Sequence record: PP400781
Source: Escherichia phage FL20
Length of the DNA: 64,000 nt
Direction: 5' to 3' (one strand)
Part shown: positions 60,865-64,000 of the stretch, piece after piece
Numbering within the stretch: position 1 is the stretch's first letter
How the letters are laid out: each line of letters starts with the position of its first letter
Position numbers and translations under genes: made by a program
Notes under the pieces: model-generated
What the model was told of the DNA's origin: nothing
The model's input: only the letters and a program-made list of their open reading frames with translations
Database searches by the model: none

Positions 60865-61455
60865 TCAATAGCGTTTAGTCTTAAGAATGCCTTTACTCTT
60901 TAGATGGTTAGCCTTTTTTAGTACGTCATCAGCATAACCTAATCCGGCTTTATAGTTCCATCCAGCATTGTAAGAAGCTAGCGCGAGTCGGATATTACCG
61001 TTTCGAACATCCAGCCAGTATGCTAACTCATCCATCGCGTAGAATGCAGAAACCTCGCGATTCATGATAAAGTTGATAGTCTGGCGATCACTCATTTTAA
61101 CACCGCGCTTTGCATTTTTCGCTTTCACCGTTTTAAGGTAATTTTGAAATAATCCATAAGCATGATGATTTTTCTTTGGTGCTAAGTTTGCACCCGCGCT
61201 TGATTCTTGCCATGCGATACCCGCCAGGATGTGACCTAAACCCTTTCCGTTATAGCGAATATTCGGATGGTACTTTTTCAACTTACCGCTTTTCTCGAAT
61301 TGCTCGCCGTATTGATAGGCGAAATGTAAATTATCTAGTTGGTGTGCTGTAAAGTTGTCTATCGGCGCTTTTTTGATCGGTGCGCTAGTCGATGCGTGTG
61401 TAGCACCAACGGCTAGTGACAGACTCAATACTATCGCTTTTAGAACTTTTAACAT
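60865..61455 (-). CDS. Secreted lytic-transglycosylase-like (SLT domain) protein
   Basis: ATG at 61453-61455 with AGGAG RBS; signal peptide; catalytic-type E-S motif (WQESSAG), GLFQ and AYNAG signature motifs. Confidence 0.5.
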   Translation of the reverse strand: MLKVLKAIVLSLSLAVGATHASTSAPIKKAPIDNFTAHQLDNLHFAYQYGEQFEKSGKLKKYHPNIRYNGKGLGHILAGIAWQESSAGANLAPKKNHHAYGLFQNYLKTVKAKNAKRGVKMSDRQTINFIMNREVSAFYAMDELAYWLDVRNGNIRLALASYNAGWNYKAGLGYADDVLKKANHLKSKGILKTKRY

Positions 61456-61540
61456 TAATTTCTCCTGTTTGGCTTGACTTTCTGATTCCATAATATAGCC
61501 CTATCACCAGAAAGTCAAGCATTAATTTAACCAATTTCCA

Positions 61541-61963
61541 TTATTGGTCTACCTTCAAAACAACCGCCGACATTTTACCCGCCAGTCGTTTTGGATTCTC
61601 TATAATCATTCGGCAGCATAGACCGTGATATGGCTTACCCTCTTCGATTAGATCTACTGTCATCCCGATCCACATGTTACCGTCAGTAATTTCTAATCGA
61701 TTAGGTCGGTCTTCCATTTTCAGGAAGTCGAAGATCTCCGGCAAACGAGTTTCTATCTTATTGAATAGTTCCATTGTCTTATGTTCATCGATATGACGAT
61801 CGGTTAGACGGTCGATCATATGCGGACTAAAGCGAATGAAAATATACTCACCGTAACCATCATTCAAGCACTTTTCTTTGATCTGCGCATTGGTTTTGCG
61901 CATTTCGGTTTCGAAGAATCTACGCAGCTTACTACGGCGAACATGTACGTTAATTGTTTCCAT
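61541..61963 (-). CDS. regB: Endoribonuclease RegB
   Basis: 140 aa from ATG 61961-61963; RRSKLRRFFETE, RLEITDGNMW, CRMIIENPKRLAGK match T4 RegB. Confidence 0.85.
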   Translation of the reverse strand: METINVHVRRSKLRRFFETEMRKTNAQIKEKCLNDGYGEYIFIRFSPHMIDRLTDRHIDEHKTMELFNKIETRLPEIFDFLKMEDRPNRLEITDGNMWIGMTVDLIEEGKPYHGLCCRMIIENPKRLAGKMSAVVLKVDQ

Positions 61964-61967
61964 TTTA

Positions 61968-62303
61968 TTATCCTTTCTTAAACAAATTGCGAAGCCAGTA
62001 TACAAACGGGATTTCTTTAAACTTGAACTTGTCAATAGTTAATTCTTTAGTAGCAAGATGAATACCATAAGCATCATGTGTAACTATATGCCATTTTCTA
62101 TAGTCCAAATGTGAACAACCGTCTGGATCTAGGTTAATAAGAGTTTCTCGCTCACTAGGATTATTTTTCCACAATTTTGTAATAGGATCGCACATAATTC
62201 GACCTAGCGTACCATGAATAATCTCACAACGGTAAAGTTTTCCAGCAGTGAGATAGGCGCACCCGTCATAGTCGGTATAAACAAACACTTCTTTAACACT
62301 CAT
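61968..62303 (-). CDS. Hypothetical protein (111 aa)
   Basis: ATG at 62301-62303 with AAAGGAG RBS. Confidence 0.4.
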   Translation of the reverse strand: MSVKEVFVYTDYDGCAYLTAGKLYRCEIIHGTLGRIMCDPITKLWKNNPSERETLINLDPDGCSHLDYRKWHIVTHDAYGIHLATKELTIDKFKFKEIPFVYWLRNLFKKG

Positions 62304-62334
62304 TTTAATACTCCTTTGTTGTTTCGATGGGGGT

Positions 62335-62363
62335 ATATTACTACCCCCGATCATGTGTGTCAA
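62335..62363 (-). promoter_or_regulatory. Sigma70-type early promoter with dyad spacer
   Basis: TTGACA-cacatgatcgggggtag-TAATAT; arms gggggta/taccccc. Confidence 0.5.
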
Positions 62364-62624
62364 CTACTTTTTCAAGATTTTTTTGATTGCATTCCAAAGA
62401 CCTTTATTTCCAGGTTGTTTTGGTTCTTCGATCAGTGTCCATGTTCGACCGTCTAAGTGTGCACAATTTTTAAGGCAAATAAAAATCTGATGTCCATTAT
62501 CAGCACGGATATAACCACTATTCGCAAATCTTTCATGTGGTGTATATTCATACAGTGTATTAGGTGTAATATACTTGCGGTTACTATAAGGTGTCATCAC
62601 ATACATCATGGTACTAACTCCCAA
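62364..62624 (-). CDS. Hypothetical small protein, paralog of 62606..62800
   Basis: 86 aa; shared core GYI..D.G..I.I.L..CAHLDGRTW.LIEEP. Confidence 0.4.
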   Translation of the reverse strand: MGVSTMMYVMTPYSNRKYITPNTLYEYTPHERFANSGYIRADNGHQIFICLKNCAHLDGRTWTLIEEPKQPGNKGLWNAIKKILKK

Positions 62625-62800
62625 CGGTCACCGCGAAGATGAGCACATCCACCATCAAGAAGGATCGTAATACGAACACCCGCATCATCTTCAATATACC
62701 CGATAGTCGGTGGATGTTCGTCGTCTCGTGTCGGGTTAAAATCATACATCTTTCCAGGCGTAATATCTTGTCCTTTATTGCTATTGGTATAAACTTGCAT
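62606..62800 (-). CDS. Hypothetical small protein, paralog of 62364..62624
   Basis: 64 aa; GYIEDDAGVRITILLDGGCAHLRGDRWELV. Confidence 0.4.
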   Translation of the reverse strand: MQVYTNSNKGQDITPGKMYDFNPTRDDEHPPTIGYIEDDAGVRITILLDGGCAHLRGDRWELVP

Positions 62801-62821
62801 TTTCTTAATCTCCTATATTAA

Positions 62822-63520
62822 CTAACCACGGGTATAGTGTTCCAGAACAACTGTCAGATGAATATATTCTAATAGATCTTTCCAAAAGTCAACATCTGGT
62901 TCTTCCGGCATACCGTTTTTCTTTGCCTCTTCACGCGCGAGTTTAACACGCTCGTAGAGATCTTTCAATTCTTCCCGCACATTATCAAAGGTTCTTTCTC
63001 CTAACTTACACGCTAAAATAGAAGAACGTCGCGCGAGCGGGAATTGTAGATCACCTGTCTGATAGATTTCAAGTAGCTGATAACCAACACGCAGAGCATG
63101 AGAAAGATCTTTCCAGTTACTGAAATACTTTTCAGATTTGGCTACCTGCTTTTTGAGATAGCCAGACAAACCCCACATACCAACATGATAGAATTTATCT
63201 CGATGTGTTCGGATGTATTCCCATTCTCTGGAGGATTCAATCAACATGTTACTAGGAGCGTGCACCATGTCAATAGCGCCGATATCGCCTTTACATGCCA
63301 GATTGATAAACCGTTTTAGACTGAACATATTAACGTCAATATCGTCTTTGGTGTTCTTGATACCTTGACCGCTAGTGCTTTGGTCATAGTGTTCTTTCAT
63401 CGATCCTAAGATAATTTCTTTCGCAGTCGGAACAAAGATACCACGATAATCTTTATCTGAATTTTCAGTATCAAGGCCGTACAAGTGAGATCCGAAGACC
63501 ATTTTAACCATTGTATGCAT
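62822..63520 (-). CDS. Predicted nucleotidyltransferase-fold protein
   Basis: 232 aa; N-terminal MVFGSHLYGLDTENSDKDYRGIFVP fits the minimal NTase signature hG[GS]...[DE]h[DE]h. Confidence 0.45.
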   Translation of the reverse strand: MHTMVKMVFGSHLYGLDTENSDKDYRGIFVPTAKEIILGSMKEHYDQSTSGQGIKNTKDDIDVNMFSLKRFINLACKGDIGAIDMVHAPSNMLIESSREWEYIRTHRDKFYHVGMWGLSGYLKKQVAKSEKYFSNWKDLSHALRVGYQLLEIYQTGDLQFPLARRSSILACKLGERTFDNVREELKDLYERVKLAREEAKKNGMPEEPDVDFWKDLLEYIHLTVVLEHYTRG

Positions 63521-63538
63521 AATTAAACCCTCAGTTGA

Positions 63539-64000
63539 TTAAACGTATTCAGCAACAACATTATGTTTAAAATTACCGCTCCTTTTTGGATTTGGATTTT
63601 TCAATCGACTATGTATTAAATTTTTGTTGTATCCGGTTGCTTTAGACGCTTCGCCAATACTTTGATAAACAACACCATTAACACGAATCGGACGAGACTT
63701 ATTAAACAGTTGATTCAATCCGGCATCATATGCATGGTTTTGGTTTTCTTGCCTCGTTGCGATCTCAAGATTCCAAACACAATTACAAGATTTTACCCCA
63801 CTTTTATGATTAATTTCAAGACCTTCACAATCACCTATAAAGTGTTCAGCAACTAGTCTATGAATATAGCGATATTTCTTACTTTCCCCATCATGCAAGC
63901 ATACATTATAATAACCATCACCAGCGCGTTTAGGTCGGAGTAGTTTACCTTTAACACGTTTTATAGTAGGGAACTCACCAAATTGATTTCTCTGGATAAA
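63539..64000 (-). mobile_element. HNH homing endonuclease gene, 5' end beyond window
   Basis: The frame stays open upstream of the track ATG to the window edge (...RPKRAGDGYYNVCLHDGESKKYRYIHRLVAEHFIG...EINHKSGVKSCNCVWNLEIATRQENQNH); HNH core plus C-terminal NUMOD-like HTH. Confidence 0.65.

Follow-up and report, generated by a model that had tools for sequence, protein, structure and literature searches.

A short-form RlaP-family nucleotidyltransferase gene and three paralogous small barrel-protein genes in the vs-regB region of a Krischvirus

Gene content and order of the vs-regB region

The window analyzed here, the whole 64,000-nt stretch of DNA from Escherichia phage FL20 (PP400781), includes the early-gene "vs-regB" accessory part of an RB49/JSE-like T4-type coliphage (Krischvirus). 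The nucleotide sequence of this region is 97–98% identical to 58 Krischvirus records. In phage JSE, the annotated order is vs.8, a small ORF, vs.6, a homing endonuclease, nrdC.11, three hypothetical genes, regB, vs.1, vs, and tk.4. Our analysis concerns one nucleotidyltransferase (NTase) gene and three small ORFs (sORF1, sORF2, and sORF3), all four of which are real genes on the minus strand.

The HNH homing endonuclease gene (63539..64000, minus strand; Pfam HNH_3, E = 6.7e-11; phrog_59) has its 5' end beyond the window edge and is a mobile insertion placed between vs.6 and the NTase gene. This endonuclease is annotated in JK32 and G37-3 (594 nt), a different homing endonuclease occupies the site in JSE, and no endonuclease is present between vs.6 and the NTase gene in UPWr_E1, SSG23, and Brandy. 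The NTase gene (62822..63520, minus strand; 232 aa; PF10127, phrog_388) is separated by 21 nt from sORF1 (62606..62800, minus strand; phrog_6261), which encodes an acidic protein of 64 aa (pI 4.6) made up of a bare SH3-like barrel domain. The next gene, sORF2 (62364..62609, minus strand; 81 aa; phrog_15978 and phrog_6261), encodes the barrel domain with a basic C-terminal tail, KGLWNAIKKILKK, and its start codon and the stop codon of sORF1 share the sequence ATGA. These three genes are probably co-transcribed in Krischvirus. In the product of sORF3 (61968..62303, minus strand; 111 aa; phrog_6261), the barrel domain contains an insertion of 10 residues and is followed by a C-terminal extension of 37 residues that ends in YWLRNLFKKG. 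Only 4 nt lie between the sORF3 stop and the start of its downstream neighbor, the endoribonuclease gene regB (61541..61963, minus strand; PF10715, E = 1.1e-48), and the GGAU Shine-Dalgarno sequence of regB, also reported for RB49 (PMC3014915), falls inside the final codons of sORF3.

A sigma-70-type, early-promoter-like site (62335..62363, minus strand; TTGACA, 17 nt, TAATAT) matches the consensus at 10 of 12 positions in a consensus scan. The -35 hexamer and the block containing the -10 element and a hairpin are identical across eight Krischviruses, while the spacer sequence is variable. The site would be expected to act as a promoter. The GC-rich conserved hairpin, GGGGGUA-GUAAUA-UACCCCC (62325..62353, minus strand), has a predicted folding energy of -16.8 kcal/mol (z = -2.56) and overlaps the -10 element. 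In record MK327941 it is listed as a putative terminator. It lacks a T-run after it and has no match in Rfam. A wider Rfam search of 61400–64000 likewise matched no RNA element.

A short-form RlaP nucleotidyltransferase

The N-terminus of the NTase, MHTMVKMVFGSHLYGLDTENSDKDYRG, contains G10-S11, ten intervening residues, and D22-K-D24, in agreement with the Pol-beta signature G-[GS]-x9-13-D-x-[DE]. Two further acidic residues, D60 and D62, are located at the start of a strand spanning residues 62–67 and supply the third carboxylate expected on a later strand, and all six of these residues (G10, S11, D22, D24, D60, and D62) are invariant in an alignment of 39 sequences. Residues 7–191 match the Pfam RlaP family PF10127 (E = 3.4e-14, 53.6 bits, against a curated cut-off of 23 bits), the protein matches phrog_388 "nucleotidyltransferase" (E = 2e-79), and the gene is annotated as nrdC.11 in JSE and Phi1. 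A preliminary description of this locus had read a GS-x9-13-DxD signature in this gene and expected an NTase fold, and both expectations hold. It had called this the signature of minimal nucleotidyltransferases; the protein is a 232-aa enzyme of the RlaP type with a helical C-terminal domain and not a minimal NTase.

Structure prediction agrees with this family assignment. The AlphaFold model (pLDDT 91.8) has a beta/alpha core (residues 2–96) followed by helices (residues 98–230), and its best PDB matches by Foldseek are the Pol-beta NTases kanamycin NTase ANT(4'), Hailong HalB, LinB, and AAD(9) (E = 3e-5 to 1e-3, from a library that lacks the PfRlaP structure). The model thus supports a Pol-beta NTase fold with a helical C-terminal domain. 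Searches by sequence, with either the single sequence or a profile, found no relatives of solved structure. The gene is under very strong purifying selection, with a pN/pS of 0.03 among eight Krischviruses.

The presence of this NTase in T4-type phages has been recognized since 2006 (PMC1524935), and T4 NrdC.11 has been assigned to PF10127 as well (PMC12776372, a preprint). The two proteins share the Pfam family, the GS...DxD...D catalytic residues, and the arrangement of an NTase domain with a helical C-terminal domain, and they are about 45% identical across the aligned parts. The Krischvirus protein is the version of T4 NrdC.11 carried by this lineage. The two differ in length, with 232 aa in Krischvirus and 336 aa in the T4 type, and a central segment of about 96 residues in the T4-type protein, carrying the conserved KYGxKGSR and YGERxxxAxxN motifs, is missing from the Krischvirus NTase. 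The corresponding HMM positions 129–224 are absent from the NTases of the window and JSE and from the homologue P0019, and the Krischvirus NTase, like P0019, is colinear in length with the Pfam model. Because this segment is missing, the substrate of the Krischvirus enzyme could differ. The genes also differ in position, between vs.6 and regB in Krischvirus and after nrdC.10 in T4.

RlaP enzymes add one or two NMPs to RNA 3'-OH ends and prefer mimics of broken tRNA, an activity demonstrated in vitro for PfRlaP and PaRlaP of Pseudomonas (PMC12776372), and phage RlaP proteins are predicted to restore nucleotides ahead of ligation (PMC7824862). By this analogy the Krischvirus NTase would repair RNA 3' ends by restoring bases removed by host anticodon nucleases, after which the phage Pnkp and RNA ligase 1 would reseal the tRNA. 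Family and fold are established here, and the activity and in vivo role of the protein are what we infer from them. JSE encodes both pseT (Pnkp) and rnlA (Rnl1) in the same genome as nrdC.11. These genes lie at 131–134 kb and nrdC.11 at 54.6–55.3 kb, about 80 kb apart, and they are adjacent to nrdC.11 in neither JSE nor T4. The RlaP family takes its name from a neighborhood with RNA ligase or RNA-repair genes, which nrdC.11 lacks in both phages.

A family of small SH3-like barrel proteins

The products of sORF1 and sORF2 are 38% identical by BLASTP (E = 6e-11) and have CAHLRGDRWELV and CAHLDGRTWTLI in common, which bears out their earlier description as paralogues. The same description had treated sORF3, which contains CSHLDYRKWHIV, as a possible weaker relative. 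The relationship stands (E = 8e-4 to sORF1, E = 2e-3 to sORF2, and E = 5e-20 to the family HMM), but the ranking does not, as sORF3 is the strongest of the three matches to phrog_6261 (E = 1.1e-37, compared to 4.4e-27 for sORF1 and 4.4e-5 for sORF2). The best PHROG match for sORF2 is phrog_15978 (E = 2e-59). Judged from their sequences, the resemblance among the three is far beyond chance and they are paralogues.

The gene models are supported by translation signals and by selection. A Shine-Dalgarno sequence lies upstream of each small ORF, including AAGGAG before the sORF3 ATG. The sORF2 gene had been delimited as 62364..62624; the gene itself is real, but the most likely start is the ATG at 62609 rather than the TTG at 62624. 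The ATG has GGGAG eight bases upstream, and a corresponding 246-nt gene is annotated from this start in six of seven other Krischvirus records examined; the counterpart in JSE keeps the start and has a later stop (270 nt). Among eight Krischviruses, pN/pS ranges from 0.15 for sORF3 to 0.28 for sORF2. There are two allelic types of sORF2 within the genus, and most amino-acid changes among its members fall in the barrel's loop region and the GYIxDDxG hairpin.

The domain shared by these proteins is about 60 residues long, with the consensus Y-I-T-A-G-K-x-Y ... D-D-x-G ... C-A-H-L ... W-E-V-V. A profile search returned 173 cluster representatives, among which P0168, P0232, and P0214 are apparently false positives due to repeats or low complexity, and the family HMM confirmed at least 231 members. 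Most copies of the domain are acidic (median net charge -5, median pI 4.7); sORF2 and sORF3 are basic overall (pI 9.5 and 8.3) because of their tails. AlphaFold models the domain very confidently (pLDDT 95.9) as a small barrel of five strands, the last of them preceded by a 3-10 turn, as is characteristic of SH3-like beta-barrels, and the best matches among solved structures are SH3 domains, with integrase and Spt5 KOW domains also among the fold matches. No relatives of solved structure were found by sequence. Some proteins consist of the domain alone, some repeat it internally in tandem (P0143, P0145, and P0154), and others carry it at the N-terminus, ahead of a wide variety of unrelated tails. 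Fusion partners are heterogeneous and include one DUF3850, one sub-threshold Tad2-like match (E = 8e-4), and one domain that hits a PHROG called "RNA-binding protein," the others being unassigned. Tandem expansions have also arisen separately, and the one at locus L005 comprises four copies that are 43–58% identical to one another and at most 39% identical to the other copies compared.

This confidently modeled family has no Pfam entry and no description in the curated libraries. At E <= 1, sORF1 and sORF3 had no match in Pfam-A and sORF2 had only a sub-threshold match to Pro_isomerase (E = 0.12); in NCBIfam, at the same threshold, sORF1 and sORF2 had no match and sORF3 matched only Fos families, far below the cut-off. 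All three small ORFs do match the PHROG families phrog_6261 and phrog_15978, as do 39 and 29, respectively, of 42 longer members of the family, but the PHROGs divide one family in two and give no function, fold, or domain definition. Our literature searches found no mention of phrog_6261 and no Krischvirus transcriptome. A pattern scan of 185,579 bacterial species genomes, with the reach of the pattern used, returned no relatives, and on present sampling the domain appears to be restricted to phages.

Comparisons with other small phage proteins yielded likenesses in size, fold class, or position. Bas11 Gp54 (PDB 9axb), the trigger of CapRel, and the standalone SH3 proteins (DUF7244) of T1-like phages are likewise small, standalone phage proteins of the same barrel fold class. 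The barrel of Gp54, however, is reported to have six strands and a rare topology, and neither the A3 profile nor one family member matched 9axb at E <= 10. A link to DUF7244 was rejected, as the Pfam match is absent and the genomic context differs. In T4, the slot between vs.6 and regB is filled by other small early accessory genes, vs.5, vs.4 (an Acb2-like anti-CBASS sponge), and vs.3, and the vs.3-denV block is removable. The comparison with the T4 vs.x genes that had been proposed for this locus showed a shared slot and no homology. With the family HMM run at full sensitivity (--max) on six-frame ORFs of T4 45–68 kb, relationships to vs.3, vs.4, vs.5, mobD.x, and tk.x were all rejected (best E = 0.51).

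Functional readings of the gene neighborhood

We consider it fairly probable that the NTase and the small proteins are neighbors by inherited gene order and do not form one functional system, the NTase repairing RNA 3' ends and the small proteins acting as independent early binders. The three genes sORF1-3 are old, diverged tandem duplicates of the barrel domain, and under this reading each copy would act on its own, as a small cytoplasmic binder produced early in infection. The variable barrel loops would hold a host or defense protein, and the range of targets would grow through duplication and the exchange of alleles. In favor of independent binders are the varied architectures in which the domain occurs, its separate tandem expansions, the concentration of amino-acid change in the loop region and the GYIxDDxG hairpin, and its mostly acidic character.

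One alternative, suggested by the preliminary description, is that the NTase and small ORFs form a single module, toxin-antitoxin-like or anti-defense. In such a module the barrels could regulate, target, or neutralize the NTase. The tight same-strand packing, with the short gap and ATGA overlap described above, speaks for such a module, as does a relative (L008) that retains the order NTase, sORF1-like, sORF2-like with an NTase only 57% identical to that of the window. But outside the Krischvirus lineage the two part company: an RlaP NTase was found in the flanks (within about 5 kb) of none of 19 domain loci from other phages, and both T4 (23 kb around nrdC.11) and a phage with a long-form homologue (L009) carry the NTase without the small domain nearby. 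The likeness to MNT-HEPN toxin-antitoxin pairs extends to a Pol-beta-fold NTase beside small genes, whereas here the NTase is larger and of another family, a full RlaP enzyme and not a minimal MNT, the small ORFs are beta-barrels, and there is no HEPN partner. A toxin-antitoxin or defense assignment was also rejected by PADLOC, which had no match for the small ORFs and a single marginal one for the NTase (E = 0.032). Further against a module, the conserved promoter-like site divides sORF3 from the first three genes, and the NTase is roughly ten times more conserved in evolution than sORF1 and sORF2. We therefore regard a single module as quite improbable, and the proposed NTase-centered pairing was not upheld. 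A functional link specific to the Krischvirus lineage may nonetheless exist, given the tight packing and the order retained in L008.

It is similarly unlikely, in our estimate, that the barrels are RNA-binding accessory factors of an RNA-directed cluster consisting of the RlaP NTase, the RegB nuclease, and the Vs valyl-tRNA-synthetase modifier, for example guiding RegB or the NTase to substrates in the way that ribosomal protein S1 helps RegB. Many SH3-like, KOW, and Sm-type barrels bind nucleic acids, with the integrase and Spt5 KOW matches, the basic tails of sORF2 and sORF3, the intimate junction of sORF3 with regB, and the fusions to DUF3850 and to the "RNA-binding protein" domain all pointing in this direction. 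Yet most copies of the domain, taken without tails, are strongly acidic, the loci in other phages have no regB, NTase, or recurrent RNA-enzyme neighbor (indeed, no recurrent neighbor gene of any kind was found there), and T4 RegB functions without such a protein, no family member being present in the 23 kb of T4 scanned. A reading of the small ORFs as frames that arose by chance or are decaying can be practically dismissed. They are short, are annotated only as hypothetical, and match no curated family, but this reading is refuted by their conservation, as seen in the low pN/pS, the Shine-Dalgarno sequence at each, the homologues spread over diverse phage contigs, and the very confident structure model.

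Independent early binders could take a more specific form. An anti-defense role of the small proteins by themselves is possible, and tandem expansion and allelic mosaicism of the kind seen here are typical of phage-host conflict genes. More speculatively, and with a rather low probability, the barrel would represent a new family of binders, seemingly limited to phages, that serve counter-defense or host takeover. The family would diversify through tandem duplication, swapping of alleles, and short gene conversions, and in Krischvirus it would fill the hyperplastic slot of T4 Vs.4/Acb2, each paralogue neutralizing a different host factor. The small proteins are less trivial than the NTase, with no evidence for a new mechanism as yet; if a target were found, the catalogue of small phage effectors would gain a new family. 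The NTase is ordinary by comparison, its family now being biochemically described, and the short form could serve as a convenient minimal phage RlaP for work on nucleotide-excising anticodon nucleases.

Gene order and genomic setting

Six consecutive genes, all on the minus strand, fill the final 2.5 kb of the window: an HNH homing endonuclease cut off by the window edge (64000..63539), a nucleotidyltransferase of 232 aa (NTase, 63520..62822), three small ORFs (sORF1, 62800..62606; sORF2, 62609..62364; sORF3, 62303..61968), and regB (61963..61541). The region was matched at 97-98% nucleotide identity by 58 deposited phage genomes, all of Krischvirus type (RB49, JSE, Phi1, GEC-3S, and others). 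JSE is annotated in the order vs.8, a small ORF, vs.6, a homing endonuclease, nrdC.11, three hypothetical proteins, regB, vs.1, vs, and tk.4. This gene order and the level of identity identify the end of the window as early accessory DNA of a T4-type coliphage resembling RB49, and public records already hold every gene discussed here. Some records pass on wrong labels: sORF3 is an "endoribonuclease" in JK32 and Skers, probably as spill-over from regB, and many T4-type records, following the gene name nrdC.11, call the NTase "thioredoxin" or "glutaredoxin".

The interval between vs.6 and regB consists of an optional homing endonuclease, nrdC.11, and sORF1-3 in JSE and the records examined, whereas T4 has vs.5, vs.4, and vs.3 instead. 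The preliminary description had proposed a comparison with the T4 vs.x genes; it revealed a shared slot filled by unrelated sequences, with no kinship between the T4 vs.3, vs.4, and vs.5 proteins and sORF1-3 when the T4 region was scanned with the family HMM (best E=0.51). Acb2, an anti-CBASS sponge, has its T4 relative in Vs.4 (PMC10419184), and the T4 vs.3-denV block can be removed (PMC9825161). This accessory slot is hyperplastic; the comparison with T4 gives it context but does not bear on function. The endonuclease 5' of the NTase (63539..64000) is the same gene in JK32, G37-3, and pEJ01; JSE has another homing endonuclease at this site, and UPWr_E1, SSG23, and Brandy have none. Such variation within the genus agrees with the insertion of a mobile gene between vs.6 and nrdC.11.

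A short form of the RlaP nucleotidyltransferase

The N-terminus of the NTase, MHTMVKMVFGSHLYGLDTENSDKDYRG, carries G10-S11, ten residues, and D22-x-D24, the GS...DxD signature recognized in the preliminary description, and these four residues together with D60 and D62 were invariant in an alignment with 38 homologues. The predicted fold was also confirmed. The protein exceeded the curated threshold of Pfam PF10127 (RlaP) and also matched PHROG 388 ("nucleotidyltransferase"), and its AlphaFold model (pLDDT 91.8, pTM 0.88, 39-sequence alignment) consists of a beta/alpha NTase core and, C-terminal to it, an all-helical part. The best Foldseek matches in the PDB were the kanamycin NTase ANT(4'), Hailong HalB, LinB, and AAD(9) (E=3e-5 to 1e-3), all Pol-beta-fold NTases with a helical second domain; a sequence search of solved structures detected none. 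A pN/pS of 0.03 among eight Krischviruses indicates very strong purifying selection. Family, fold, and selection are shown by this analysis.

Most homologues, including T4 NrdC.11, are 300-340 aa long. The window NTase and a metagenomic homologue (P0019, 234 aa, 57% identity) are missing HMM positions 129-224, a segment that bears conserved KYGxKGSR and YGERxxxAxxN motifs in the long forms. T4 nrdC.11 (L010 10436-11446) differs from the Krischvirus gene by a central segment of ~96 residues, which T4 may have gained or Krischvirus may have lost. The short form is colinear with the Pfam RlaP model (P0019 residues 6-221 correspond to model positions 23-229 of 249), and long forms fit this model only with a ~96-residue insertion. 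The family of the NTase is known, but this short form had gone unremarked.

An NTase domain was recognised in nrdC.11, an ORF conserved among T4-type phages, in 2006 (PMC1524935). A December 2025 preprint, which assigns T4 NrdC.11 to the same family, reports that two Pseudomonas RlaP enzymes put one or two NMPs on the 3'-OH of RNA and not DNA, favour a broken-tRNA mimic, and can make over-damaged tRNA functional again (PMC12776372). A comparative study predicted that phage RlaP replaces nucleotides lost to RloC-type nucleases before ligation (PMC7824862). Laboratory growth of T4 does not require the nrdC.11-mobD.3 block (PMC9825161). In JSE, pseT (Pnkp) and rnlA are present but lie ~80 kb from the NTase. 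We infer an RNA 3'-end activity and a repair role: the NTase would be an RlaP-type enzyme that lengthens RNA 3' ends, plausibly acting with the phage Pnkp and Rnl1 on tRNAs short of one nucleotide.

A phage family of small SH3-like domains

The paralogy first noticed between sORF1 and sORF2 holds (38% identity, BLASTP E=6e-11), and both matched the phrog_6261 profile (E=4.4e-27 and 4.4e-5, respectively); sORF2 also matched phrog_15978 (E=2e-59). sORF3, initially taken as a possible weaker relative, is indeed related (E=8e-4 to sORF1 and 2e-3 to sORF2) but is a strong member (phrog_6261 E=1.1e-37), with an insertion within the barrel and a 37-residue tail. For sORF2, originally delimited as 62364..62624, the gene stands but not its start, which is probably the ATG at 62609. 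This codon overlaps the sORF1 stop (ATGA) and is preceded by GGGAG, and the corresponding 246-nt gene is annotated in six of the seven other records examined, JSE having the same start and a later stop. The sORF2 tail differs in JSE (L001 4925-5194): the usual stop is unused, and the frame continues 24 nt into a promoter-like region, ending in ...KKNLEKVVDTHDRG.

All three small ORFs are genes, since each has a Shine-Dalgarno sequence (AGGAG, GGGAG, and AAGGAG for sORF1, sORF2, and sORF3) and a pN/pS among Krischviruses of 0.27, 0.28, and 0.15, respectively, which refutes their being non-genes. sORF1 and sORF2 evolve faster than the flanking enzymes (regB pN/pS 0.05). Each Shine-Dalgarno sequence contains GGAG, the T4 RegB cleavage motif.

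A word-indexed search found 17 close relatives only. An 11-sequence profile run against 1.84 billion cluster representatives gave 173 proteins at E<=1e-3, and 231 passed the family HMM after pooling with a second indexed search. Members are mostly 58-75 aa; Y19 and W60 (sORF1 numbering) are invariant, and T14, K17, I36, D39, and H54 are kept in at least 90% of sequences. The family has no curated model: Pfam at E<=1 returned nothing for sORF1 and sORF3 and one sub-threshold match for sORF2, NCBIfam gave only far-below-cut-off matches for sORF3, and PADLOC had none for the small ORFs. sORF1 was modelled at pLDDT 95.9 and pTM 0.81 (68-sequence alignment), and Foldseek against viral models matched the domain to uncharacterised phage proteins only. 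Deposited phages with the domain are Krischvirus, ~138-kb Vibrio phages, and two Drexlerviridae; a pattern-limited scan of bacteria, one genome per species, found no relative. The small ORFs belong to an uncharacterised but catalogued phage family, whose extent, fold, and independence from the NTase are new here.

The domain is usually acidic (median pI 4.7, median net charge -5), as in sORF1 (pI 4.6); the tails of sORF2 and sORF3 make these two proteins basic (pI 9.5 and 8.3). The domain can stand by itself, be repeated two or three times within one protein (P0143, P0145, P0154), or lie N-terminal to many unrelated, mostly unannotated tails. Single cases (P0174 and members of alignment A6) include a fusion to DUF3850 (E=5e-16), a match to a PHROG "RNA-binding protein", and a sub-threshold fusion to a Tad2-like (Thoeris anti-defence 2) region (E=8e-4).

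Among the window and six Krischvirus orthologues (L011-L016), sORF2 has two types of allele; one reads HERFANSGYIR...CAHLDGRTW, the other DERMSTYGYIK...CAYLDDRPW. At 0.35, the synonymous divergence of sORF2 is two to three times the value for most neighbouring genes, which suggests that an allele was imported from a more distant lineage. Amino-acid differences concentrate at two places, the loop that follows the GKxY hairpin and the GYIxDDxG hairpin. The alternative sORF1 and sORF2 alleles have in common an identical 19-nt tract, GGTTACATCAAAGATGATA, in the GYIKDD hairpin (L001, L011, L016), and a metagenomic protein (P0005) is a clean chimera of an sORF1 N-terminus and an sORF2 C-terminus, which together suggest that the paralogues have exchanged sequence.

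The stretch from sORF2 to sORF3 contains a promoter-like TTGACA-17-TAATAT (62363..62335), overlapped by a GC-rich hairpin (62353..62325; -16.8 kcal/mol, z=-2.6). Eight Krischviruses share the -35 hexamer and the hairpin/-10 block without change, while the spacer differs among them. The hairpin is labelled a terminator in one GenBank record, with no T-run after it, and no Rfam family matches the region. The sORF3 stop is 4 nt ahead of regB, and the GGAU Shine-Dalgarno reported for RB49 regB (PMC3014915) sits in the final sORF3 codons (61963..61975), before the regB ATG. We infer two putative early transcription units, NTase-sORF1-sORF2 and sORF3-regB.

Linkage between the NTase and the small ORFs, and proposed role

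HMMs made for the small domain and the RlaP NTase were used to scan all fetched loci. The small domain was present with no RlaP NTase in the flanks of six loci reached via family members (L002-L007; up to 5 kb per side, as the contig allowed) and nearby in 13 IMG/VR loci (L018-L030). Conversely, T4 (23 kb from nrdD to e) and L009, which has a long-form NTase, lack the small domain. L008, with an NTase 57% identical to that of the window, carries two small-domain copies downstream in Krischvirus-like order, its contig stopping after the second. The adjacency is therefore synteny inherited within a single lineage and does not recur as an association elsewhere among these loci. The preliminary observation of an NTase followed by small related ORFs was accurate and its interpretation is partly supported, but the proposed association fails at the 19 other loci, T4, and L009. 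A lineage-specific module of NTase and small ORFs, which the order kept in Krischvirus and L008 would fit, is very unlikely given this distribution.

We propose that sORF1-3 would act as separate cytoplasmic binders of SH3-like build, produced early in infection, with variable loop surfaces and, in two of them, a basic amphipathic tail. The domain is acidic and standalone, it has expanded repeatedly in separate lineages, its alleles are mosaic, and the genes sit in an accessory region; on these grounds, our best guess for the target is a host or defence protein. That the small barrels are instead RNA-binding helpers of the RegB/NTase cluster matches their position between these two genes; set against the acidic domain and its occurrence away from RlaP NTases, this seems improbable.

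Tandem arrays of the small domain recur independently. The four copies in L005 (2853-3101 and 5001-5680, three in tandem) have 43-58% mutual identity and at most 39% to any other compared copy; being closest to each other, they reflect an independent expansion. L022 and L026 have two copies apiece. Some copies in unrelated arrays, often the last, end in a basic amphipathic C-terminal tail (W..I.K.LKK-like), such as KGLWNAIKKILKK, YWLRNLFKKG, VWAKIVEKFKKLL, and FDKLKCYLKKLFKVLG (window 61968..62080 and 62364..62420; L005 5423-5680; L008 5489-5752).
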